Assembly (NCBI RefSeq): GCF_015182315.1
Contig: NZ_PRDL01000001.1
Coordinates: 1,460,580-1,492,579 of the forward strand
DNA length: 32,000 nt
Reading direction: 5' to 3'
DNA from: Cellvibrio polysaccharolyticus
Lineage (GTDB): Bacteria > Pseudomonadota > Gammaproteobacteria > Pseudomonadales > Cellvibrionaceae
How positions within the stretch are numbered: the stretch's first letter is position 1; each line of letters opens with the position of its first letter. Made by a program: the position numbers and the translations under genes. Of the stretch, positions 12,084 to 23,013 are shown one piece after another. The notes beneath the pieces were generated by a model. The model was given only the letters and a program-made list of their open reading frames with translations, made no database searches and had not been told where the DNA came from.

Positions 12084-13082
12084 TCAATTCACATCAAAAC
12101 GGAAGCGGCCATCAACCACTTGCGGCGCCTGGCGGCGGTCACTGCCTGGCAGTTCAGCAACAAAAATACCGTCAATATAATCAATGCGCTTGTCGGCCAG
12201 TAACTCAATCGTGGTTAATTGAATGCGGCATTGACCACCGTTCGCGGATGAATATTTATCGCTGCCGACAACCTCAAGAGTGATGTGCGTAGTGGCGTTA
12301 CAAGGGTAATCCACATTGGTCTGCAAATTATTGGTGTCAATAACAAGGGTCCAGCTGTCGCCTGACTGGTTGTTGCCGTTAAAAAACAAACCACGTTCAT
12401 CAGCATACACGGAGGTTTCCGTGGGTGTGTGATAAAGCAAAAACAGCTGGTTATTTAACGTTCCGGCAATACCGTTATTGATTAAGGTATTGGGATTTTG
12501 TACCCAGCCTGGCAGCGACGCCCGGCTTGTCAGGTTTACACCGGTGCGGTTCCCGCGTTGAACATATTCGATATCCCGCACACTGCCATCGGCCCGGGTG
12601 AATAAAATAACGGATGCAAGGGGATGCTCTGCGCGCGGTTGTATGATCAGCTTGCCGGGTTCCCGGGTAATGGTGTCAATGCTGTCTGCAATTAGTGACA
12701 ACCCGGTATTCTGTGCAAATTGAATGTCGCCATTCGGTGAAATTATCAGTTGTGACCAGTCAATTGAATCGCCCTGGTATTGCGCTGCGGGCGTGTAAGA
12801 ACCTTGAAGGCAACCAATTTGAGACGCGCCAGTGGTATTTTCACAATCGTTTGCAGATGAACTTGAGGCGCTACTGACAACAGATGAACTGCTGAACAAA
12901 CTACTGCTGGAACTGGAACTGGAACTGGAACTGGAACTGGAACTGGAACTGGAACTGGAACTGGAGGCAGGCGCCGGTATTGATGATTGATTGTTGCTGC
13001 CACCACCGCTACCGCCGCCGCAAGCGGTGAGCAGCAGTGTTGCTAATACCAATGTTGCAGAACCCGAAGAAGAGAAAGACAT
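12084..13082 (-). CDS. Lipoprotein of unknown function with polyserine tether (operon gene 8)
   Basis: Lipobox LLTAC at the N-terminus, GGGSGGGS then about 40 residues that are nearly all Ser. A 250-aa C-terminal domain has 4 Cys and no motif I recognise. The start is 2 nt after the upstream stop. Confidence 0.75.
   Translation of the reverse strand: MSFSSSGSATLVLATLLLTACGGGSGGGSNNQSSIPAPASSSSSSSSSSSSSSSSSSSSSSLFSSSSVVSSASSSSANDCENTTGASQIGCLQGSYTPAAQYQGDSIDWSQLIISPNGDIQFAQNTGLSLIADSIDTITREPGKLIIQPRAEHPLASVILFTRADGSVRDIEYVQRGNRTGVNLTSRASLPGWVQNPNTLINNGIAGTLNNQLFLLYHTPTETSVYADERGLFFNGNNQSGDSWTLVIDTNNLQTNVDYPCNATTHITLEVVGSDKYSSANGGQCRIQLTTIELLADKRIDYIDGIFVAELPGSDRRQAPQVVDGRFRFDVN
12908..12965. 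repeat. Perfect hexanucleotide microsatellite (TGGAAC)x9.7, coding (AGT-TCC = Ser-Ser on the minus strand)
   Basis: Counted directly: 9 perfect TGGAAC units (12908-12961) plus TGGA. It lies inside the polyserine tract of the 12084-13082 gene. Confidence 0.95.
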
Positions 13083-13084
13083 AA

Positions 13085-14347
13085 TCAGTTACCGTTAAGC
13101 GATGAAAGTGATTGAGTAAAAGGCGTCCAGGCAAAGTGAGTGGCTACCGCTTCGTCGTAGGCCTGTTGCAAAAGTAATAAGGTCGTGCTGTCGAGTTTGT
13201 CGGCTTGCGCCAGCACGGATAAAAAAGTGCGCTCGTAATGTTCGCGAGGTTTTACCAGAACCTGAATTTCAATCCGGTCATCGGCGTTTGGCTGTGCCGG
13301 TAATAACCCCTTGATAAATCGCGTTTCACCGGCAGCAATACGGGTATCAAAACTTTCTTCCTGCAGTGATACATCCACTTGCCAGCCGATCACATCTTCC
13401 GACAATTTTTGCCGGTGGCCGGTACGGCTTACCAGCCAGAGTTCGATGTAAACCTTGGGCACCATGTAAGTCGGAAAGTGATGCCCGGCCCCGCTATTGG
13501 TAATTGCAGCCGTCACCTGGTTTTCATCGCGACTTACCTTGAATGAAAGCGCTGTGCGCACCATGTCGGGCGAATGGATGCCTTGCCATTGATGTTTGCG
13601 ATCCGGCATATGGCAAGACTGGCAATGTTGTTGCTGCGACGGATATTGGCTGGCCTGCCATTGTGTCAAAGTGTCTTCGCGCAATTTACCGGCAGTACGC
13701 GGGCCATCTTCCGGAAACTGATGGCAAGTCGCACAAAAACGGCTGTCTTCAAATGCTGCTGAAACGGTAAAGCCGTTGTGGAGCAGGTTGCTGTCGGGCA
13801 ACTCGTTACGCGGTTGCGGGCCAAAGCGTTGATGTTCCCGCACATGGCAAGCGGCGCATACCAGCCCCTCGTGGCCTAATTGCGGCGGTACATAAGCCGG
13901 TGGTGACGAAGCCGGCGCATTGGGCCACTGGTGTTCTATGGCCAGTAAGGCTTTTTGTTCTGCCAGGGGGGCGTGACAGTTTAAACAGCCGTTGGCTTGC
14001 TCCTGTGGCATTAACCGTAATTGCCATAGAATCCCCGGCCCCATGGTCTGGCTGTGCAAACTGTTTTTCCAGTCGGCGTATTGTTCTGTATGGCAAGCAC
14101 CGCACACTTGCGGCGCGAGGGAGGCTTCAATCTCTGAAAAATGTGCTGGCGGGTTTCCTTGCGGTGGTAAAGGATGGTGCCAATGCTTTTGCAAAAACTG
14201 ATCGACCGCATCACCAATGGGTGGCAGTGGTGCCGGGTGGTTAAGCGAAGGTGCCACAGGGGCGGGTGCCGGTTTTTGTACCAGCACTGCACCTGCCGCG
14301 ATAGCGCCAATAATAATTAGCACACTGATGACCAGACCTGTTTTCAA
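13085..14347 (-). CDS. Membrane-anchored pentahaem c-type cytochrome (operon gene 7)
   Basis: Five CxxCH motifs (CGACH, CLNCH, CAACH, CATCH, CQSCH). N-terminal hydrophobic anchor MKTGLVISVLIIIGAIAAGAVLV followed by a Pro-rich segment. The last 150 aa or so are haem-free. TTG start is 2 nt after the TusA-like stop. Confidence 0.85.
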   Translation of the reverse strand: MKTGLVISVLIIIGAIAAGAVLVQKPAPAPVAPSLNHPAPLPPIGDAVDQFLQKHWHHPLPPQGNPPAHFSEIEASLAPQVCGACHTEQYADWKNSLHSQTMGPGILWQLRLMPQEQANGCLNCHAPLAEQKALLAIEHQWPNAPASSPPAYVPPQLGHEGLVCAACHVREHQRFGPQPRNELPDSNLLHNGFTVSAAFEDSRFCATCHQFPEDGPRTAGKLREDTLTQWQASQYPSQQQHCQSCHMPDRKHQWQGIHSPDMVRTALSFKVSRDENQVTAAITNSGAGHHFPTYMVPKVYIELWLVSRTGHRQKLSEDVIGWQVDVSLQEESFDTRIAAGETRFIKGLLPAQPNADDRIEIQVLVKPREHYERTFLSVLAQADKLDSTTLLLLQQAYDEAVATHFAWTPFTQSLSSLNGN

Positions 14348-14349
14348 TA

Positions 14350-14619
14350 TCAGGCCCGGCGTATTTTCCAGGTGAAAGTACCGCCGTCTTCCTGACGATC
14401 CAACAGCGTGTCGCCGTTAGCGGTGCACAGGTAAGTAATCGATTCCCCGGAAGACGGGTTATCAAAAACCAGTGTCAGTTCGTTGCCGCTGGTCAGCTTT
14501 TTCAAGGCTTTTTCTGCATAAATTTGCACATGCGGACAACCGTAACCTTTTACGTCCAGCAACCAGTTGTTATCGGATTGTTGTTCAAATTTGACCGTTT
14601 CTTTCAGTTTAATTGCCAT
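14350..14619 (-). CDS. TusA/YeeD/SirA-family sulfur-carrier protein (operon gene 6)
   Basis: 89 aa. LDVKGYGCPHV (conserved Cys-Pro, Cys28), then LTLVFDNPSS...YLC, matching the TusA fold pattern. Directly downstream of a YeeE-family gene, as in the E. coli yeeE-yeeD pair. Confidence 0.8.
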   Translation of the reverse strand: MAIKLKETVKFEQQSDNNWLLDVKGYGCPHVQIYAEKALKKLTSGNELTLVFDNPSSGESITYLCTANGDTLLDRQEDGGTFTWKIRRA

Positions 14620-14641: not shown

Positions 14642-16084
14642 TCAAAAATCAAAACCGCTGCGAGCCAGGCGCCAGTCAATCCAGGCTTTGATGCCTTTTA
14701 CCGCAATATAGCCACCCACAATCATGCCTGCCAGGAAAATCCAGCCGCTGATATCACCGTTGGTGACGGTGGCAAAAAAGGCGCCGATATTACAGCCCAT
14801 GCCAATGCGTGAACCTATCCCCATCAGTGCGCCACCCACCAGTGCCAATATTACGGTTTCGTTGTTGGGCCATTTCCATTTAAATTCGCCGGTGATATTG
14901 GCCAGGATAGCGGCGCCCAGAATAATACCGATAGACATCATCCCCGGTGCGTTTAACAACGGATTGGGTAAGCCGTTGTCGAGGCCAAAGAAAATGTTGT
15001 CCATCATTTCAACACCGAGCAATTGTAAAAACCAGCCGCCCCATTGTGCTTCCTGGGTGGTGATGTACCAGTAACCCGGGTCAAAAACGCTGTCCTGAAT
15101 CGAAAGCCCGTCCAGGTAATCCATCTGCGCCAGTAATTCACCGAAGTTGAAAATATTGTAGTGATCGCGCAATTCACCGGTCACAAGCATCTGCAAACCG
15201 GCAAAAATACCCAGCCCCAAACCGGCGATTGCGGTGTTGCGCGATTGGGTAAACATGGACCATACGCCGCGTAATTCATAACCCAAACCGCTTTCATTGG
15301 TGCGGTTACGGATATAAATTTTGCGGTAATTGAAGGTGTACAGCAGCAGCAAAATAACCAGCGCCGGTAAAATCGCCACTACCAGCGCATTACCAAAAAG
15401 ATAGCTCCAGAGATTGGCTGGCAGTGCGAAAAAATCTACCAGCGTAGTGCCGCTTAATTCCCACAAATAACCCGCAGTAAACTGGTCAAACCAGCCATCG
15501 GTTACGCTCAGCTCTTCCGGCATTTGCGCCTGAGCGGCGGTTTCTGTCCAGCTCGCGGGTACCAGATGGTTCAACCAGCCACCGGCGCTGGCAAGCCACG
15601 CCTGCGAAAAAGAAATGGAGAACAACACCAGTACTGACCCCAGATTACCTTCGCCGGTTTTATACAGCGAACTGGAGGCGCAGCCACCTGCAAACACCAT
15701 CCCCAAACCAAACAGCAAACCGCCAATAATGATATGCCAGCCAAGCGGATGCGCATGGAAAGTATTAAAACCGGCTTGCTGAATCAGTGCAGAAATAATG
15801 GCGTAAAGTATTACCGCAATGAGTACGCCTACCGCCATGCGCGGCACACCCACCGCAAACAGATCCCGCACCGCGGACGCCATACAAAAGCGACCGTATT
15901 GTAAAAATACGCCATAGATGACACCAAACCAGGTGTAAACCAGCAAATAAACGAAGCGCTGATCTATCGAAAGATAAATCAGCGAGGTAATCACAACCAG
16001 CGTTGCAATTACCGCAGCAATTAAAAATCCCCGGCGACGGGAGGGGTGTTTGGTCGCCGGGTTAATAGCAGCCTGAGCGGGCAT
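14642..16084 (-). CDS. YeeE/YedE-family sulfur-compound (thiosulfate-type) transporter, enlarged form (operon gene 5)
   Basis: 480-aa polytopic membrane protein carrying the three Cys motifs characteristic of YeeE (GRFCMASA Cys67, AGGCASSS Cys135, GMGCNIGA Cys431). AAAGG SD lies 8 nt upstream. Confidence 0.8.
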   Translation of the reverse strand: MPAQAAINPATKHPSRRRGFLIAAVIATLVVITSLIYLSIDQRFVYLLVYTWFGVIYGVFLQYGRFCMASAVRDLFAVGVPRMAVGVLIAVILYAIISALIQQAGFNTFHAHPLGWHIIIGGLLFGLGMVFAGGCASSSLYKTGEGNLGSVLVLFSISFSQAWLASAGGWLNHLVPASWTETAAQAQMPEELSVTDGWFDQFTAGYLWELSGTTLVDFFALPANLWSYLFGNALVVAILPALVILLLLYTFNYRKIYIRNRTNESGLGYELRGVWSMFTQSRNTAIAGLGLGIFAGLQMLVTGELRDHYNIFNFGELLAQMDYLDGLSIQDSVFDPGYWYITTQEAQWGGWFLQLLGVEMMDNIFFGLDNGLPNPLLNAPGMMSIGIILGAAILANITGEFKWKWPNNETVILALVGGALMGIGSRIGMGCNIGAFFATVTNGDISGWIFLAGMIVGGYIAVKGIKAWIDWRLARSGFDF

Positions 16085-16100
16085 TGGACAAACCTTTCAA

Positions 16101-17270
16101 TTACAAAATGAACTGGAGACCCAGGGTCGTTTGATAATTATCTTGCAGTACCGGTGTAGACGGATGCGGGTTGGCATAGTCGTATTCGCGGTGTTCAAGG
16201 GTAATTTTCAAACTCTGTCCGTTGATGTAATAGTTGGCACCAAAGGCGTTAACGCGGCGATCCAGTAATCCGCCGGGCAGCTGGTATTCAGAGCCATCGT
16301 GGCGGGCGAAAAACTGCAAACGACCAGGGCCGACCGGGTTGGGTAACAAGTAACCGGCTTTTACGTAAAAGCCTTCCAGCTCGGTGGTGGTGGGCAGCAG
16401 CGGGTCAGGGGATTTGTTGATCGCGTTACCCAGACCATAATCGAAATATGCGGCCGACAAGGTGTAGGTACCACTTTTAAAGGGGTACTCAAAAAACGCA
16501 TCGGCGGTCCAGGCTTTGTAATCCTGAATGCCGGTTTTTTGATCGTAATCATCATAGGCCGCATCGGCCTGGAAATCGTAAGCAACACCAAAGGTGAGAA
16601 TTTTACGAGTACCCAGATACGTGCCGCGATAACCGTAATCGTATTCCGGATCCAATGCGCTCCAGTGCAAACGGGTCGTCACGCGGGGTGATTTTTTCGG
16701 TACTACCTCGCCTTCACGGCCATCGGCAACCAATACCCGGTATTGGAATGCTGCATCGCTCAGGTTGCCCCAAATGGCGAGGCCGGTATCACGCGAGCCG
16801 GCAAAGGGGGTGTAAGAGGCATCGCCACGATCCAGTGATAAGGGCTCAAGACAGGCTTCGAGATTTTCACGGGAAAAGGTATTTTTAAAACGGCCAACAA
16901 TGAAACGCAGTTCATCGGTGTAATCCAGTGTTATATAAGCATCGCGGTAATAAATTTCGCGATCGTCATTACCGGCCTTGCTGTCGTTACCGGATTCCAG
17001 CTGTGCATAAAAACCGATGTAATCATTGTACTGGCCACTGAAGGTAAGCCGGTTGCGACGCAAATAAACGTCGGTGCTGGAACCATCATGCGTGGCGGAT
17101 GTGTAACTGCTGTTGGTTGCCCAGACTTGCAGTGCGTAGTTAATTTGCAGAGAGCTGTTTTCACCGAACTCAATAATCGGGCCCGCTTGACTTACAGCAG
17201 GTAACACCGCTGCCGCCGCCAAACCGGCCAGCAAGGAACGGCGAAATGAACGTGTATGTTTTTTTTTCAC
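16101..17270 (-). CDS. Outer-membrane beta-barrel / porin-like protein (operon gene 4)
   Basis: GTG 17270 gives the signal peptide VKKKHTRSFRRSLLAGLAAAAVLPAVSQA|GP. Alternating amphipathic strands rich in Y/F/G, an LRRNRLTFSG motif reminiscent of OprO/P-type porins, and an aromatic-rich C-terminus (LGLQFIL). The ORF-track ATG 17336 would overlap the upstream gene by 53 nt. Confidence 0.7.
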   Translation of the reverse strand: MKKKHTRSFRRSLLAGLAAAAVLPAVSQAGPIIEFGENSSLQINYALQVWATNSSYTSATHDGSSTDVYLRRNRLTFSGQYNDYIGFYAQLESGNDSKAGNDDREIYYRDAYITLDYTDELRFIVGRFKNTFSRENLEACLEPLSLDRGDASYTPFAGSRDTGLAIWGNLSDAAFQYRVLVADGREGEVVPKKSPRVTTRLHWSALDPEYDYGYRGTYLGTRKILTFGVAYDFQADAAYDDYDQKTGIQDYKAWTADAFFEYPFKSGTYTLSAAYFDYGLGNAINKSPDPLLPTTTELEGFYVKAGYLLPNPVGPGRLQFFARHDGSEYQLPGGLLDRRVNAFGANYYINGQSLKITLEHREYDYANPHPSTPVLQDNYQTTLGLQFIL

Positions 17271-17283
17271 TTGAAAAATACCT

Positions 17284-17856
17284 TTATTCCAGATGTTCGA
17301 ATAAACGTGGGCTGATAGTGCGCCACGTATCGGCAAGATCTTTTACTTCGCCGGCGGCGTGACAACTGCCACAGGTTTTCTCCGGCACGGTTAATGGGTT
17401 AACCACGAGATTTTTGTGAGCAATTTCCTGCTTGAGAATGCGCGGGTTACCCTGGTGACAACCGGTACAGGAATAATTCACCTTGGCGTGTTGGTGGTGC
17501 CAGGGTGCGATATCCGGCGTGCTCTCGGGCAGCGCAGCACGTTTGCCGTTGTGGCAACGAAAGCAGCTGGAGGCACCCAGGCCGCAAGCATTGGCCAGCG
17601 CTACCGGCGAAAATTGTTGCGCCTGGCTTTTTACGATATCAATGGCTTCAACGCCCCACCCGCTGTGTGCTGCGACCAGTTCATTCACCGCGTCGGACGC
17701 GGCTGTATCCGGTTGCGTGGTCGCTTGCAATAACAGCGAGCTGATGCCGATAACCGAGGTGACGGTAACCACCGCCAACCAGCCGGTTGCACTGATCAAT
17801 GTCAGCTTGCCGGCATTTTTAAGATGTCGGTTTAAAATGTTAATAAGTGCTTTCAC
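17284..17856 (-). CDS. Membrane-anchored trihaem c-type cytochrome (operon gene 3)
   Basis: Three CxxCH motifs (CFRCH, CTGCH, CGSCH). A long N-terminal hydrophobic segment LTLISATGWLAVVTVTSVIGISSLLL. GTG start with a TAAGG SD that overlaps the upstream stop codon. Confidence 0.8.
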   Translation of the reverse strand: MKALINILNRHLKNAGKLTLISATGWLAVVTVTSVIGISSLLLQATTQPDTAASDAVNELVAAHSGWGVEAIDIVKSQAQQFSPVALANACGLGASSCFRCHNGKRAALPESTPDIAPWHHQHAKVNYSCTGCHQGNPRILKQEIAHKNLVVNPLTVPEKTCGSCHAAGEVKDLADTWRTISPRLFEHLE

Positions 17857-17867
17857 GGTTATATGCC

Positions 17868-18170
17868 TTAATTTTTTTGCAGAGCTTCAAGTTTTTTTGA
17901 ATTGCGTTTCTGGCTCGCCATGATGTCGTTTTCAGTCAGGCCGTCTGCGCACATGCACACCGGACCGTCGCGAAAACGCAAGCGACTGCCTTTTTTCTTC
18001 GCTGGCTGATCGTCTGCTTTTTCTGCGTCCTGCTGTACCGGTTGTGCTTGTGCAGTTGTCGATGACGCAGCGTTTTCTGTTTCTGCAAAAACAGGGGCAG
18101 CCAATCCAAAAAACAGTACAACCGACATCAAACGAAGAGAGAAACACATCGTGAATGGTGGGTGATACAT
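17868..18170 (-). CDS. Small secreted protein with CMC motif (operon gene 2)
   Basis: GGAGG lies 5 nt before ATG 18170. Signal peptide ...LMSVVLFFGLAAPVFA|ETE. The roughly 70-aa mature part is charged and probably disordered, with a single PVCMCADG motif. No homology recognised. Confidence 0.6.
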   Translation of the reverse strand: MYHPPFTMCFSLRLMSVVLFFGLAAPVFAETENAASSTTAQAQPVQQDAEKADDQPAKKKGSRLRFRDGPVCMCADGLTENDIMASQKRNSKKLEALQKN

Positions 18171-18188
18171 ACTTGCCTCCGTAGCGAA

Positions 18189-18208
18189 GAGGGTGACGAA
18201 GCACCCTC
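18189..18208 (-). other. Intercistronic 7-bp GC hairpin between operon genes 1 and 2
   Basis: gagggtg-N6-caccctc seen directly in the 47-nt spacer. No U-run follows on the minus strand, so it is more likely an mRNA stability/processing element or attenuator than a terminator. Confidence 0.4.
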
Positions 18209-18217
18209 CGTTAACGA

Positions 18218-19771
18218 TTAACCGCCGCAGGGGTTAGGTGGCAGAACCACGCCGCCGCCATTACCGGCACTGCTGCTACTGCTACTGCTACTGGAGCCGC
18301 CGCCATTACCGGTATCCGGTGTGGTGGCTGGCGTGATGTAGGCTTTGTCTTCCGCAATAATGGCGTTGGTGTTATCGCCGTAGGGGTCAATAATACGCGG
18401 TGCGGTGTTGGTGAAATCTGCACCACGCGCGTTGATCAGCTCCGGCTTGTTGGGGAAGTAAGGGCCTGAGAGTTCATCGGTTCTCCAGGGCGAGTCAGCG
18501 GGCAAAACGGGGTTGCCATTTTTATCGAGCGCACCACCGGTCAGTGAATTCCACTCAATCATTGCCGCATCGTACAAACGGGTTGGCAGGCCGAGAATCA
18601 CCGCACTGGCTACCTGGGAAACCGCAGCGCGAGCAGAGGTTTCACACCACAAATACACCAGGTCGCCATTTTGATAGGCGTTGCCAAAACCGAGACGCTG
18701 GTAGGTGCCGTCAACAAAGCCACGGCCAAAGGCGTCGGCACCACCGGTGATGTAATTGCGCAAATCTGCTTTGCTCTTGTACAGGCCGGTTGAGGTGTCA
18801 ATCAGGTTGGTCCAGTTCAACTGCACCGAACCACGTGGATGGCCCTGACGGCTGCCACCATTCTGGAAGCTGCTGTAGCGTTGTTCCTGAGTCAGGGTTT
18901 GCCCCGATTCGGTAGCTTCGCCAGCGCTGTACTGATCCAGGCTACGGCCATCCCACAGGAATACGCCGTCCTGAGTGTCGTTTTCATCGCGCAGTGGCAG
19001 CACGTTAATAACGTCTTCCAGCGTGGCTTGCAGAACGGTGTTATCCACTAACAGATCGCGAATGCTGGAAACCTGCTTGTTGATAATCGGGCTTGGCTGT
19101 ACCGCAACCGCACTGGAGAAAGGTTGTGCGGTAAAGTCAGCGGCTGTCCAGTTGCTGCCAAGGTGATTGTTGCCACCGTTCAGTACCGCGAGATTTTTTT
19201 GATCAACGCCCCAGTAACGGAAGGTGTACCAGCAGCGACCCTGATCCATCGCGGCGTTGCCGCCGGTGCCTTGGGCACAAACAATCAAATCGTTTTTAAC
19301 ATCAATGCCGTAACGACGAATCAACTTATCGGTCGTGGGGCCGGAGATAACAATGCCGGCAATTTCGGTTACGCCATTAACGCGCGGTTCTCTCCAGTTA
19401 CTTTCCAGATAAGTGAAAACCTTTTTGTTATCCGGTTTGATAAATTCATAACCGACCGGCCCACGGGTTGCCTGAATAATAACCAGCTTGCCGGTGATGC
19501 CGGCCGGGCGTTGGTTTTCCCAATCGTTAATCCAGCGCTTGAGCGTGGCACCGGTAACAAGGCCATTGACGTTATCGTCGTAGTTTTCTGCCGATTCCTG
19601 CGCGATATCCGCCGGTGTATTTACCAGCAAGGTGGGCTTTGGCTCAGGTGTAACCACCGGTGTGGTGTCTTTACTGCGTTCACCGCCACAACCGATTACT
19701 GACAGGCTCAAAGCAATGGCCAATAAGGTGGCCGATTTGCCGGGGCCGTTTTTTCCAATCAAATTTTTCAT
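18218..19771 (-). CDS. Lipoprotein with tandem rhodanese-like domains and a C-terminal Ser/Gly linker ending -PCGG (operon gene 1)
   Basis: Lipobox SVIGC. Domain 1 ends with the classic inactive-rhodanese pattern RCWYTFRYWGVDQKNLAVLNGG. Domain 2 has GHPRGSVQLNW, the active-site-like loop YLWCETSARAA and ...YDAAMIEWN. The tail is TGNGGGSSSSSSSSSAGNGGGVVLPPNPCGG-stop. Confidence 0.75.
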   Translation of the reverse strand: MKNLIGKNGPGKSATLLAIALSLSVIGCGGERSKDTTPVVTPEPKPTLLVNTPADIAQESAENYDDNVNGLVTGATLKRWINDWENQRPAGITGKLVIIQATRGPVGYEFIKPDNKKVFTYLESNWREPRVNGVTEIAGIVISGPTTDKLIRRYGIDVKNDLIVCAQGTGGNAAMDQGRCWYTFRYWGVDQKNLAVLNGGNNHLGSNWTAADFTAQPFSSAVAVQPSPIINKQVSSIRDLLVDNTVLQATLEDVINVLPLRDENDTQDGVFLWDGRSLDQYSAGEATESGQTLTQEQRYSSFQNGGSRQGHPRGSVQLNWTNLIDTSTGLYKSKADLRNYITGGADAFGRGFVDGTYQRLGFGNAYQNGDLVYLWCETSARAAVSQVASAVILGLPTRLYDAAMIEWNSLTGGALDKNGNPVLPADSPWRTDELSGPYFPNKPELINARGADFTNTAPRIIDPYGDNTNAIIAEDKAYITPATTPDTGNGGGSSSSSSSSSAGNGGGVVLPPNPCGG

Positions 19772-20419: not shown

Positions 20420-21526
20420 TTGCCACTGCTTACCAACCCTGATGATAAATCTGTCGATGCCAGAACGCTGGTTCGCGAACGCGCTACCGCGTTGGTGTTT
20501 GAAGACCCAACCTCCTGTGAGTTGCTGGCCCGCATAGAGCGACTTGCGCCCAGCGAAGCCAGTGTATTAATTACCGGCGAAACTGGCACCGGTAAAGAAT
20601 TGGTGGCGAGGCATGTGCATCAATTAAGCCGCCGATCGCAGCGCCCCTTTGTGGCATTAAACTGCGGTGCGCTCACTGAATCCCTGATTGAAAGCGAGCT
20701 GTTTGGTTACGAAAAAGGCGCTTTTACCGGTGCCTTGACATCGCGCCCGGGCTGGTTTGAAGAAGCCCATGGCGGTACGCTGTTTTTGGACGAAATTGGT
20801 GATTTACCCTTTTCCATGCAAGTAAAATTATTGCGTGTGCTTCAGGAAAAAGAAGTGGTGCGGCTGGGGTCGCGGGTCAGCCATCCGGTGGATGTAAGAA
20901 TTATCGCGGCAACCAACATCAATTTATTTGACGCAGTCGCTGCCGGTCACTTTCGTGCAGACCTGTTCTACCGCATCAATGTTGCTACGCTCAATCTGTT
21001 GCCCTTGCGAAAACGTCGCGGCGATATTATGCCGCTGGCACGACATTTCGTGACGCAATATTGCAAACGACTGGGGCATAACAGCGCGCAGATCAGTGAA
21101 GCCGCAGAAACCGCCCTCATGGCTCACCTATGGCCTGGCAATATTCGTGAATTGGAAAATGTCATTCATTACGGCCTGCTGGTGTGCCGGCAGGGGCGTA
21201 TTCAGGCGGGTGATTTGCATCTGTCGCGCTTGCAGGTTCCTGCAGAAAATTCCATTGCCTTCGGTGCAACAGAAAGCCCTTCTATCGAATCCCGCATGGC
21301 GTCATTGCTGGCAGAATTGTTTGAAGAGCAGCGAACCGGTTTATACGATTCCCTTGAGGAAATGCTTGTAAAAACAGCCTGGCAATATTGTCATGGCAAC
21401 CAGAGCCGGGCGGCAAGATTGTTGGGTATCAGCCGCAATATCTTCCGCGCCCGTCTGGCGCGCGCCGGTGTTATTGGAGTTTCCGATTCGACCAGTGAAG
21501 AAGCCTGGTTACCCAATGCGCTTTAG
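20420..21526 (+). CDS. Sigma-54-dependent transcriptional activator (bEBP) lacking an N-terminal sensor/receiver domain
   Basis: AAA+ sigma-54 interaction domain (Walker [15 protein letters not shown], Walker [16 protein letters not shown]). C-terminal Fis-type HTH ([23 protein letters not shown]). Only about 45 aa precede Walker A. A stop lies 21 codons upstream in frame, and the only start is TTG 20420 (or TTG/GTG about 25 codons later). Confidence 0.85.
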
Positions 21527-21605
21527 TGACTCAACAAATAGCTTTGAATAGCCGTTGTTTAACTGGCTTTTATTGACACTATTATTTATTCAGGACAGAT
21601 GGATT

Positions 21606-22430
21606 ATGAGTCTTTTCCCTTTATTACTACAGCCGGCAGAGTTGGCTGGCCGTTTGAACGAACCGCGATTGCTGATTCTTGATGTAGGTAAAGAAGCTAT
21701 CTATCAACAAGCGCACCTGCCAGGCGCTATTTTTCTGGATTACCGGCGACTGCAAAAAGGCGTACCTCCAGCACCAGGTTTGTTGCCGGAGGCCGAAGCT
21801 ATTGCGCAATTATTTTCCGATATCGGCTTGCAGGCAGATACTCACGTAGTGGCTTATGACGATGAGGGCGGCACCCGCGCTGCGCGTTTATTGTGGTTGC
21901 TGGATGCCGCCGGGCATCAGCATTACAGTTGGTTGAACGGCGGTATTCACGCGTGGCTGGATGAAGATTTGCCGATCGAAACCGAAGCGGTTTATGCCAT
22001 CCCTTCGCAGGTTACTGCTGCCCAACTGGATTTGAAGCCACAAGTCGATCTTGAATATCTGCTGGCGCATTACCAGGATGAGAACCTGGTTATATGGGAT
22101 GCGCGCACGGCGGAAGAATTTGCCGGAAGCCGTGTGATGGCTGCGCGTGGCGGACACATTCCGGGGGCGGTCAATTATGATTGGTCGTTGTTAATTGATC
22201 CTGCGCGAAACAATCGTCTGCTGCCGCTGGAAACTATTCAGAAACAACTGTCGGCGTTGGGTATCGACTCATCAAAAACGGTAATCACCCACTGCCAGAC
22301 GCACCATCGCTCAAGTTTCAGTTGGCTGGCCGGAAAAATTCTCGGATTCAAACAAATTTTCGGCTATCCGGGTGCCTGGTCAGAGTGGGGTAATAACCCG
22401 GATACACCGGTAGCGGTAGGCAAGGATTGA
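21606..22430 (+). CDS. Cytoplasmic tandem-domain rhodanese (thiosulfate sulfurtransferase), RhdA-type active site
   Basis: Two rhodanese domains with the active-site loop HCQTHHRSS, identical to the CQTHHR loop of Azotobacter RhdA as I recall it. ATG 21606 is preferred over the TTG at 21555 (the added residues look non-native). Confidence 0.85.
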   Translation: MSLFPLLLQPAELAGRLNEPRLLILDVGKEAIYQQAHLPGAIFLDYRRLQKGVPPAPGLLPEAEAIAQLFSDIGLQADTHVVAYDDEGGTRAARLLWLLDAAGHQHYSWLNGGIHAWLDEDLPIETEAVYAIPSQVTAAQLDLKPQVDLEYLLAHYQDENLVIWDARTAEEFAGSRVMAARGGHIPGAVNYDWSLLIDPARNNRLLPLETIQKQLSALGIDSSKTVITHCQTHHRSSFSWLAGKILGFKQIFGYPGAWSEWGNNPDTPVAVGKD

Positions 22431-22431
22431 C

Positions 22432-23013
22432 TCAGCGCACTTGCCGCTGTATCCACAGTAATATCAGCCCGGCAAAAGTACCTGCAACGGCGCCCCACAG
22501 GTGCGCGTCTACCGCCACGGGTACCGGTAGCAATGCGTGTTGCGGATCGAACCAGGGGGTGTGTTCGTAAATAACCTTGCCCCAAATCACCAGCAATGCC
22601 AGCGCATTAATGGTTGGAGTTTGTGGCAGGGTTAACAGCAACCCGGCAATAATCAGTCCGTGCAGGGTGCCTGACAGACCCGCATAAAAAAACAGCTCGG
22701 GATCAAAAAACCATAAGCCGATTCCGGTTACTGCAAGGCAGGTGATCAAGGTGGCCAGGTAATGTTTCACTGCAGCATCGCGCCACAGTGCGGCATTAAT
22801 GATGACCAGCGCCGCTGCATTCATCAGCAGATGATAAACCCCGTAATGAATGAACTGACTGGAGATCAATCGCCACCATTCGCCTTGGGCAATGGCATTG
22901 CGATCAAATTGTAGCAGGGGTTCGGTAATGGTTTGGAAGAGCCCGGCGAGAGCGAGCAGGGCGACCAGCAGGAGCGTCAGAATATCCATCCGGTTTAAAG
23001 TAAAAGCTGGCAT
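22432..23013 (-). CDS. Rhomboid-family intramembrane serine protease, rhombosortase-like
   Basis: 193 aa, 6 TM-like segments. Motifs: EWWRLISSQFIHYGVYHLLMN, catalytic-Ser YAGLSGTLHG, catalytic-His DAHLWGAVAG. The size and YxGLSGxLHG pattern resemble rhombosortases rather than GlpG. Confidence 0.7.
   Translation of the reverse strand: MPAFTLNRMDILTLLLVALLALAGLFQTITEPLLQFDRNAIAQGEWWRLISSQFIHYGVYHLLMNAAALVIINAALWRDAAVKHYLATLITCLAVTGIGLWFFDPELFFYAGLSGTLHGLIIAGLLLTLPQTPTINALALLVIWGKVIYEHTPWFDPQHALLPVPVAVDAHLWGAVAGTFAGLILLWIQRQVR

Follow-up and report, generated by a model that had tools for sequence, protein, structure and literature searches.

What can a flexible tail tipped by a cysteine achieve at the end of a rhodanese-like lipoprotein? 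This question is raised by a gene on the reverse strand of a 32,000-nucleotide stretch of the Cellvibrio polysaccharolyticus genome (NCBI RefSeq assembly GCF_015182315.1, contig NZ_PRDL01000001.1, positions 1,460,580 to 1,492,579), the whole of which is designated here as the window and provides the coordinates used throughout. The encoded protein resembles ExtH, presented in PMC6148476 as the rhodanese-family lipoprotein of the extHIJKL cluster, and an earlier note on this DNA had proposed that its tail acts as an in-cis carrier arm for sulfane sulfur. As developed below, the existence of a functional Cys-tipped arm on this rhodanese is well supported by the comparison of homologous sequences, and the arm co-occurs with an outer-membrane porin of the ExtI type bearing a Cys of its own. 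An about even chance (roughly 0.5) is given to the tail being a built-in carrier arm, with sulfane sulfur moving between the Cys of the rhodanese and that of the porin.

A divergent tandem-rhodanese lipoprotein of the ExtH superfamily

The features of the protein, as read on the reverse strand, are as follows.

18218..19771 (-), ExtH-like tandem-rhodanese outer-membrane lipoprotein, 517 residues (open reading frame, NCBIfam NF040901, AlphaFold2, Foldseek)
19688..19771 (-), signal peptide and lipobox LSVIG-C28 (sequence reading)
18629..18646 (-), predicted rhodanese catalytic loop C376-ETSAR (conservation, hhalign, AlphaFold2 model)
18230..18337 (-), flexible low-complexity linker, residues 479-514, terminating in a conserved LPPNP (AlphaFold2, length survey)
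18221..18229 (-), terminal Cys515-Gly-Gly-COOH, Cys codon 18227-18229 (alignment)
18218-18220 (-), stop codon

The N-terminus reads MKNLIGKNGPGKSATLLAIALSLSVIG-C28, i.e. a signal peptide followed by a lipobox, the Cys28 of which is kept in 120/121 sequences of the close-homologue alignment (120 homologues at 46-99% identity together with the window protein). The rhodanese nature of the remainder, assumed in the earlier note, is unreadable from Pfam, where a search with the protein returned no match even at E<=10, and a sequence search of the PDB found no relative. The sole NCBIfam match is to ExtH (NF040901; 91.2 bits, E=6.8e-26, residues 18-464), an equivalog model labelled 'selenite/tellurite reduction operon rhodanese-like protein' whose curated cutoff of 200 bits is not reached, the window protein being, on this profile score, a sub-threshold and divergent member of the ExtH superfamily. 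In addition, an AlphaFold2 (AF2) model built on an alignment of 67 homologues (mean predicted local distance difference test score, pLDDT, 89.3; predicted template modelling score 0.85) is confident for residues ~45-485, and its comparison with the PDB by Foldseek retrieved solely tandem rhodaneses, namely Mycobacterium tuberculosis CysA3, bovine TST, human MST and YnjE (template modelling score <=0.74, probability 1.00, 15-18% identity).

Regarding the active site, the relevant stretch reads YLWC376ETSARA, and hhalign aligns C376-ETSAR, at a probability of 90%, with the catalytic C-QTHHR of another, Pfam-positive rhodanese encoded in the window (21555-22430). The region around C376, a residue kept in 116/121 close homologues, follows a strand-loop-helix pattern in the AF2 model. 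By alignment and conservation, C376 is thus the catalytic Cys, the first of the six residues that form the active-site loop of the C-terminal domain, and sulfurtransferase activity through a Cys376 persulfide is predicted. Since the NCBIfam match, the AF2 model, the Foldseek results and the profile alignment agree, the protein is, as modelled, a divergent rhodanese lipoprotein of two domains, prolonged at the C-terminus by a disordered tail; the rhodanese label of the earlier note stands by fold and by loop alignment.

The C-terminal arm and its conserved tip

The open reading frame ends in TTPDTGNGGGSSSSSSSSSAGNGGGVVLPPNPCGG-stop (translation of 18218..19771, reverse strand). Past the EDKAY motif, the tail runs through ITPATTPDT, GNGGG, an uninterrupted Ser run, AGNGGG and VV to LPPNPC515GG-stop. 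A lipoprotein of 517 residues with a low-complexity tether and a near-terminal Cys, as first described, is therefore confirmed by translation; of the span originally given for the tail (18218-18325), the quoted 34 residues occupy 18221-18322, one extra Thr having been included. The flexibility attributed to this tail is borne out by the AF2 model, in which residues 490-517 are disordered (pLDDT <50).

The terminal Cys lies one to three residues from the C-terminus in 121/121 sequences of the close-homologue alignment, and it is also found in 100/101 further relatives and in at least 79/80 species-representative genomes. This conservation far exceeds chance. NPCGG is the most frequent ending in all three sets (80/121, 91/101 and 61/80), the close homologues also showing xNPCG (~23) and NACGG (10). 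The sequence between the last helix, marked by an xDxxY motif, and this Cys is made of unalignable Gly, Ser, Pro, Thr and Asn residues. Across 215 window-type proteins, the xDxxY-to-Cys distance ranges from 17 to 36 residues, with a median of 22; none falls below 17 and the window protein, with 36, has the longest linker of all. Homologues thus keep the terminal Cys at the end of a low-complexity linker of variable length, and the refutation by homologues lacking this Cys, provided for in the earlier note, does not occur.

At the DNA level, part of the Ser run comes from a perfect tandem repeat (CTGCTA x3.5, 18273-18293), and P0001, a metagenomic protein 99% identical to the window protein, has two Ser fewer in its tail, which suggests that linker length varies through repeat slippage. 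Given this hexamer repeat and a difference in Ser count at 99% identity, the linker tolerates insertions and deletions and the tip is invariant. The tip, LPxNPCGG, is rigid and conserved, and has the look of a motif recognising a defined site.

Distribution of the arm in the ExtH superfamily

Among 1.8 billion representatives clustered at 50% identity, an exhaustive search identified 253 relatives, of which 150 were listed and 95 of these are full-length. Among the full-length matches listed, 49/95 bear a Gly/Ser-rich tail with a Cys in the last four residues, 31/95 are tail-less and end directly after an EDKAYK-like motif, 4/95 have a Gly-rich tail ending in GY, and 11/95 fit none of these three classes. 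Two of the relatives, P0240 (415 bits) and P0254 (298 bits), pass NF040901, and both end in GGGSGC-COOH, i.e. in a tail that lies beyond the end of the NF040901 profile. Among the relatives of P0240, all 118 full-length sequences (of 120) have a Gly/Ser/Thr linker and a Cys as the very last residue (SGC-COOH); this set includes proteins named ExtH by NCBI in Geobacter, Trichlorobacter lovleyi, Oryzomonas, Geomonas and Desulfuromonadaceae. In these true ExtH proteins, the linker spans 18-29 residues (median 21). A length floor of 17-18 residues is thus common to two subfamilies that share <35% identity, which suggests a reach requirement. Altogether, the terminal Cys is kept in >330 sequences, down to ~27% identity, while the linker drifts. 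On these alignments, the Cys-tipped arm is a family-wide feature of ExtH, beyond the window type.

The tail-less relative nearest to the window type, P0129, is isolated among tailed relatives and its gene lies outside any module, amid fatty-acid genes. In the tail-less paralogues, the catalytic Cys is nonetheless present (as C364, invariant in the narrower alignment A5, which served to scan the loci of this clade, the broader A4 being too divergent). The third tail class is poly-Gly and ends in -PGY or -GGY, with a Cys at the base of the tail or missing; its members are found at L106 (7872-9125), L116 and L118 and as P0213, P0221, P0230 and P0246, and the genes of this class still adjoin a Cys-bearing ExtI-like porin.

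Besides, in six ExtH-like genes (L107-L110, L114 and L115), an in-frame TGA falls exactly at the position of the catalytic Cys, e.g. TAYTY-U-RTGIRAA and THMY-U-RISARGA (as in L108 from 4520 and L114 from 2824). These genes run on to a poly-Gly tail ending in PGY and have ExtI-like porin neighbours; they are predicted to encode rhodanese lipoproteins with selenocysteine (Sec) in the active site.

Pairing of the arm with an ExtI-type porin

The porin encoded in the same operon as the window protein has the following features.

16101..17336 (-), ExtI-type outer-membrane porin (NCBIfam porin_ExtI NF040900, 328.5 bits vs. a cutoff of 150)
16851-16853 (-), codon of porin Cys162, the only Cys of the porin, in FSRENLEAC (alignment)

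This porin passes the ExtI equivalog model. Cys162 is invariant in 72/72 relatives and belongs to FSRENLEAC, the most conserved block of the protein, which is identical in the Geobacter-type ExtI despite an overall identity of ~40%; more distant ExtI relatives retain the Cys as RE-x-N/L-E-x-C. According to the ExtI paper (Jahan 2018, PMC5877670), the Geobacter sulfurreducens protein likewise has only one Cys. An invariant single Cys is unusual for an outer-membrane porin, and no functional discussion of it appears in that paper (PMC5877670). A PDB sequence search with the porin returned no match, and a single-sequence AF2 model reached a pLDDT of 32.7, too low to be of use. Counting the short turns NDY, TDE and SDA by hand, the RENLEAC block would correspond to loop L3, the usual constriction loop.

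When all loci with enough flanking DNA are pooled, 85 genes encoding a Cys-tailed protein have an ExtI-type porin gene within a few kb and none lacks one. Among nine tail-less genes, 7/9 have no such porin, and the two that do (L049 and L119) look like frameshifted or truncated versions of tailed genes. The association between arm and porin is significant by Fisher's test (p=3.5e-9), a statistic that ignores phylogeny. Moreover, the ExtH-like and ExtI genes are paired in the same operon in 74/80 related genomes. As for the partners originally put forward for the arm (cytochromes, porin and YeeE), the porin is the one singled out by covariation with the arm; a direct hand-off to YeeE, which resides in the inner membrane, is geometrically unlikely because of the distance.

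The surrounding operon

The ExtH-like gene leads an operon on the reverse strand, followed by genes for a small secreted protein, a trihaem cytochrome, the porin, YeeE, TusA, a pentahaem cytochrome and a Ser-rich lipoprotein. Besides the rhodanese and the porin, the features of this region are listed below.

17868..18170 (-), small secreted protein, 100 residues, invariant CxC (C72, C74), RFRDGPVCMCADGL
17284..17856 (-), c7-like cytochrome, trihaem, N-terminal membrane helix (Pfam Cytochrome_C7, three CxxCH)
14642..16084 (-), YeeE/YedE (TsuA-like) inner-membrane sulfur transporter (Pfam Sulf_transp, E=1e-48)
14350..14619 (-), TusA/YeeD-like sulfur carrier (GYGCPHV), 89 residues (open reading frame, weak NCBIfam TusA/YedF/YeeD matches)
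13085..14347 (-), pentahaem c-type cytochrome (five CxxCH; NF040886 at 46.7 bits vs. a cutoff of 250)
12084-13082 (-), Ser-rich lipoprotein, 332 residues, ~30 consecutive Ser (no family match)
20420..21526 (+), divergent sigma-54 activator (Pfam Sigma54_activat)
21555-22430 (+), canonical tandem rhodanese with a CQTHHR loop (Pfam-positive)
22432-23013 (-), rhombosortase

In a survey of 80 genomes, YeeE, TusA and the pentahaem cytochrome are each present in 77, the trihaem cytochrome in 76 and the porin in 74, the missing genes being explained by short or truncated contigs, and two gene orders occur among the 80 loci. The sigma-54 regulator, present in 60/80 loci, likely regulates the module, and the Ser-rich lipoprotein is restricted to the closest relatives (4/80 loci). 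The window-type module is hosted by Gamma- and Betaproteobacteria, among which sulfur oxidisers are numerous; the hosts include Cellvibrionaceae (the nearest, 78%), Solimonas, Ectothiorhodospira, Thiohalobacter, Thiobacillus and Thiogranum, as well as Thiohalomonas, Rubrivivax, Sideroxydans/Gallionella and Ca. Thiodiazotropha. No sox gene was found among the annotated open reading frames of the window, the rest of which is housekeeping.

Across the 80 loci, every other module protein has an invariant non-haem Cys, with the exception of the pentahaem cytochrome. In the small secreted protein, for which neither Pfam nor NCBIfam gave a match, the CxC is kept in 28/28 detectable homologues; this protein holds the position of ExtJ in the Geobacter cluster yet has no similarity to it. 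In the trihaem cytochrome, a seventh Cys (Cys91), located seven residues ahead of the first CxxCH and invariant in 77/77, might either ligate haem or bind sulfur. YeeE has three invariant Cys (C67, C135 and C431, in 76-77/77) and the TusA-like protein, whose gene occupies a seeming 294-bp gap between the YeeE and pentahaem genes, has two (78/78); YeeE-YeeD is a thiosulfate uptake system (PMC11073785). As for the pentahaem cytochrome, all 10 Cys lie within CxxCH motifs, with no non-haem Cys or Sec. An orthology with MccSep was considered and ruled out on the score (46.7 vs. 250 bits) as well as on the lack of a Sec/Cys site and of a Cys haem ligand; by its profile match, the protein is a distant relative of ExtKL/MccSep.

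Two further elements lie close to the ExtH-like gene. In the 47-bp spacer after its stop codon (18171-18217), a GC-rich inverted repeat, GAGGGTG...CACCCTC, may form an intra-operon hairpin or attenuator. On the other side, just upstream of the module, lie the genes for the canonical tandem rhodanese and the rhombosortase, and the latter raised the possibility that the lipoprotein is a GlyGly-CTERM/rhombosortase substrate; this was ruled out, the protein stopping at C-G-G with neither a transmembrane helix nor a basic cluster. Across the 80 genomes, the rhombosortase is not a constant neighbour of the ExtH-like gene, so that the adjacency looks coincidental.

A proposed built-in carrier arm and competing explanations

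The arm is present, disordered, conserved, limited in length at its lower end and co-occurs with a Cys-bearing ExtI porin. In the mechanism that is favoured here, Cys376 would accept sulfane sulfur, as a persulfide or polysulfide or possibly as selenium in Geobacter, and the arm Cys515 would swap it with Cys376. The arm would then enter the adjacent ExtI porin and exchange sulfur with Cys162 in the RENLEAC loop, so that sulfur would move covalently across or along the outer-membrane channel; the periplasmic CxC protein and the cytochromes, then YeeE/TusA, would process it onward. A 17-residue arm would have a contour length of ~60 Å, the measure on which the reach argument is based, to be compared with an assumed barrel height of 35-50 Å. 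The loading of Cys515 with sulfur, its contacts with Cys376 and with Cys162 of the porin, the way in which sulfur would flow and the side of the membrane occupied by ExtH are presumed features of this scheme. The more specific proposition that the Cys of the ExtH arm and that of the ExtI loop together form a covalent persulfide/polysulfide relay through the outer-membrane beta-barrel is possible but doubtful.

Several points weigh against a carrier function. The sulfur adduct on Cys515 and the contact between ExtH and ExtI are both ones that we infer, and where the porin Cys lies within the barrel has a hand count as its only source. The window seems to come from a heterotroph of the Cellvibrionaceae type. 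About half of the 150 listed representatives are fragments, and, as said above, the association statistic takes no account of phylogeny. Finally, L106 has a Gly-rich tail of the -PGY class without Cys and still adjoins an ExtI porin, from which it follows that the primary role of the tail could be porin binding and not thiol chemistry; judging from this class of sequences, docking of the tail onto the porin may be the ancestral function.

The latter observation bears on the foremost competing explanation, which is less probable than the carrier arm but still fairly plausible, namely that the tail is a structural tether or plug. It would thread the ExtI barrel and form a stable disulfide with the porin loop Cys, devoid of any carrier chemistry, and would lock ExtH to ExtI, gate or plug the channel, or aid an ExtI-dependent placement of ExtH. 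The strict tracking of the porin by the arm and the invariance of the porin Cys are in line with this, as are the porin linkage of the -PGY variant, including the Cys-free L106, which speaks for docking over thiol chemistry, and an involvement of ExtI in the subcellular localisation of ExtH, known from the title of Jahan 2019 as cited in PMC13510729. Such a tether would, however, be added to a lipoprotein that already has a membrane anchor, and it would be carried by a sulfurtransferase with a conserved catalytic Cys; besides, the invariant non-haem Cys found module-wide (CxC, Cys91, YeeE and TusA) suit a relay better.

With a smaller probability, the arm Cys could act within its own molecule, by attacking the Cys376 persulfide to release sulfide and leave a Cys376-Cys515 disulfide, without any hand-off, or by capping the active site against over-oxidation where thioredoxin and glutathione are absent. 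Rhodanese and MST persulfides are usually resolved by thiol acceptors, the arm belongs to the same polypeptide in every lineage, and its length suffices to fold back on the ~440-residue domain, all of which would suit an intramolecular thiol. Nevertheless, this leaves unexplained both the tail-less paralogues, which have the catalytic Cys but no porin, and the invariant Cys of the porin itself, and the LPxNPCGG tip looks like a recognition motif.

An improbable alternative is that the terminal thiolate serves as a ligand, binding selenium (as a selenotrisulfide), a metal ion or the haem iron of a partner cytochrome, in the latter case with a His/Cys ligation as in SoxAX, TsdA or MccSep. The window-type modules have sulfur oxidisers as their main hosts and are found with YeeE/TusA importers of thiosulfate or sulfur, no metal-binding motif is evident and a single thiol makes a weak metal site, in spite of the annotation of the ext cluster for selenite/tellurite reduction (NCBIfam; PMC5877670), of the Sec predicted at the catalytic position in some relatives, of the Cys-ligated haem reported for MccSep in PMC13510729 and of module cytochromes that, trihaem Cys91 excepted, have no obvious Cys ligand of their own. 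Lastly, a neutral low-complexity extension without function, conceivable from a repeat-prone Ser/Gly tract that is partly hexamer-encoded and differs by two Ser at 99% identity, is effectively refuted by the conservation data, i.e. a Cys kept in >330 sequences, the 17-residue floor and the strict association with the porin.

Possible significance for sulfur transport across the outer membrane

Should the carrier arm operate as proposed, its interest would lie in the passage of elemental sulfur, polysulfide and related species across the outer membrane, which is an acknowledged gap. ExtI is described as a porin required for selenite and tellurite reduction (PMC5877670) and ExtKL corresponds to MccSep, a pentahaem selenoprotein of the periplasm that acts as a polysulfide reductase and without which S0 is not respired (PMC13510729); the 2026 MccSep paper states that the polysulfide route into the periplasm 'remains unclear' (PMC13510729), and, according to a 2026 proteomics paper, thiosulfate porins or sulfurtransferases of the outer membrane 'have yet to be identified' (PMC13490349). 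The arm-porin pair is a concrete candidate in this respect, and the lipoprotein rhodanese and porin are conserved as a pair from Geobacter to Thiobacillus, Thioalkalivibrio, Rubrivivax and Cellvibrio. If the relay through the barrel were true, it would constitute a previously unrecognised outer-membrane route for insoluble or reactive sulfur or selenium, common to sulfur reducers, where ExtH/ExtI would feed the MccSep polysulfide reductase, and also serving oxidisers and assimilators, where ExtH-like/ExtI proteins would feed cytochromes and YeeE/TusA. G. sulfurreducens is tractable genetically, and extI-deficient and extHIJKL-deletion strains are described in PMC5877670 and PMC6148476.

As regards novelty, neither the ExtH family nor the principle of a carrier arm is new. 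In a search of the full-text literature for ExtH (GSU2940), rhodanese lipoproteins and C-terminal Cys, which did not cover the 2019 BBRC paper on the localisation of ExtH, the tail was nowhere described, and the full-text literature linking YeeE, porin and rhodanese gave no description of it either. The earlier note knew of no described rhodanese with such an arm; the protein turns out to belong to the named ExtH/ExtI (extHIJKL) system, and it is the description of the arm that was not found in the literature. A rhodanese with a carrier arm in cis thus appears to be previously undescribed, as does the strict pairing of this arm with a Cys-bearing porin. The feature is missed by the current family models, i.e. 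Pfam and the NCBIfam ExtH model, which ends short of the tail.

Comparison with known systems

The comparison that first comes to mind, and that the earlier note had drawn, is with SoxY, a carrier whose C-terminal GGCGG acts as a swinging arm, with every intermediate of the Sox pathway bound to its Cys (PMC6067878 and PMC5336275). Both proteins have a Cys third from the C-terminus followed by Gly-Gly-COOH, on a mobile peptide and at an extracytoplasmic site, and SoxY works with c-type cytochromes and sulfur enzymes, as would the window protein. They differ in that SoxY has an Ig-like fold and the window protein a rhodanese one, in that the SoxY arm is a short extension of a dedicated carrier whereas that of the window family is a 17-36-residue linker fused to an enzyme, and in that neither SoxZ nor any sox gene is present in the window. 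In addition, the window protein ends in NPCGG (NPCGG, NPCG or NACGG in the family) and not in GGCGG, so that solely C-G-G-COOH is common, although one distant relative, P0138, ends precisely in GGCGG. A homology with SoxY was ruled out, no SoxY domain being found by Pfam at E<=10 and the fold being that of a tandem rhodanese; the resemblance is retained as a functional analogy between terminal Cys arms.

DsrC/TusE, thioredoxin reductase (-GCUG) and MerA (-CC) also illustrate the principle of a flexible C-terminal extension whose Cys or Sec ferries sulfur, electrons or a ligand between active site and partner. These proteins have unrelated folds and are cytoplasmic, and none is known to be coupled to an outer-membrane porin. 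In Wolinella succinogenes, Sud is a periplasmic rhodanese with a Cys that takes up the sulfur of polysulfide and passes it to a respiratory enzyme; unlike the window protein, it is soluble and single-domain, and it is not known to have a lipid anchor, a C-terminal Cys arm or a dedicated porin.

The closest system remains ExtH of G. sulfurreducens, encoded by extHIJKL(MNOPQS). It shares with the window protein the superfamily, the lipoprotein nature, the tandem rhodanese fold and an adjacent ExtI porin with an identical FSRENLEAC block, as well as a downstream small secreted protein, multihaem cytochromes and a Gly-rich tail ending in Cys. In T. lovleyi, ExtJ (L004 11111-11392; NF040942, 64 bits vs. 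a cutoff of 52.5) itself ends in AAALQGC-COOH and represents a second C-terminal-Cys protein of the ext cluster, small and secreted; ExtJ is absent from four other Geobacter-type loci. The two ExtH proteins are ~30% identical and differ at the tip, SGC-COOH in ExtH vs. LPxNPCGG-COOH in the window. Their partners also diverge: ExtJ, ExtKL (the MccSep selenoprotein), the bc-type ExtMNOPQS set and LysR control in Geobacter, vs. a trihaem cytochrome, a Sec-less pentahaem cytochrome, YeeE/TusA and sigma-54 control in the window.

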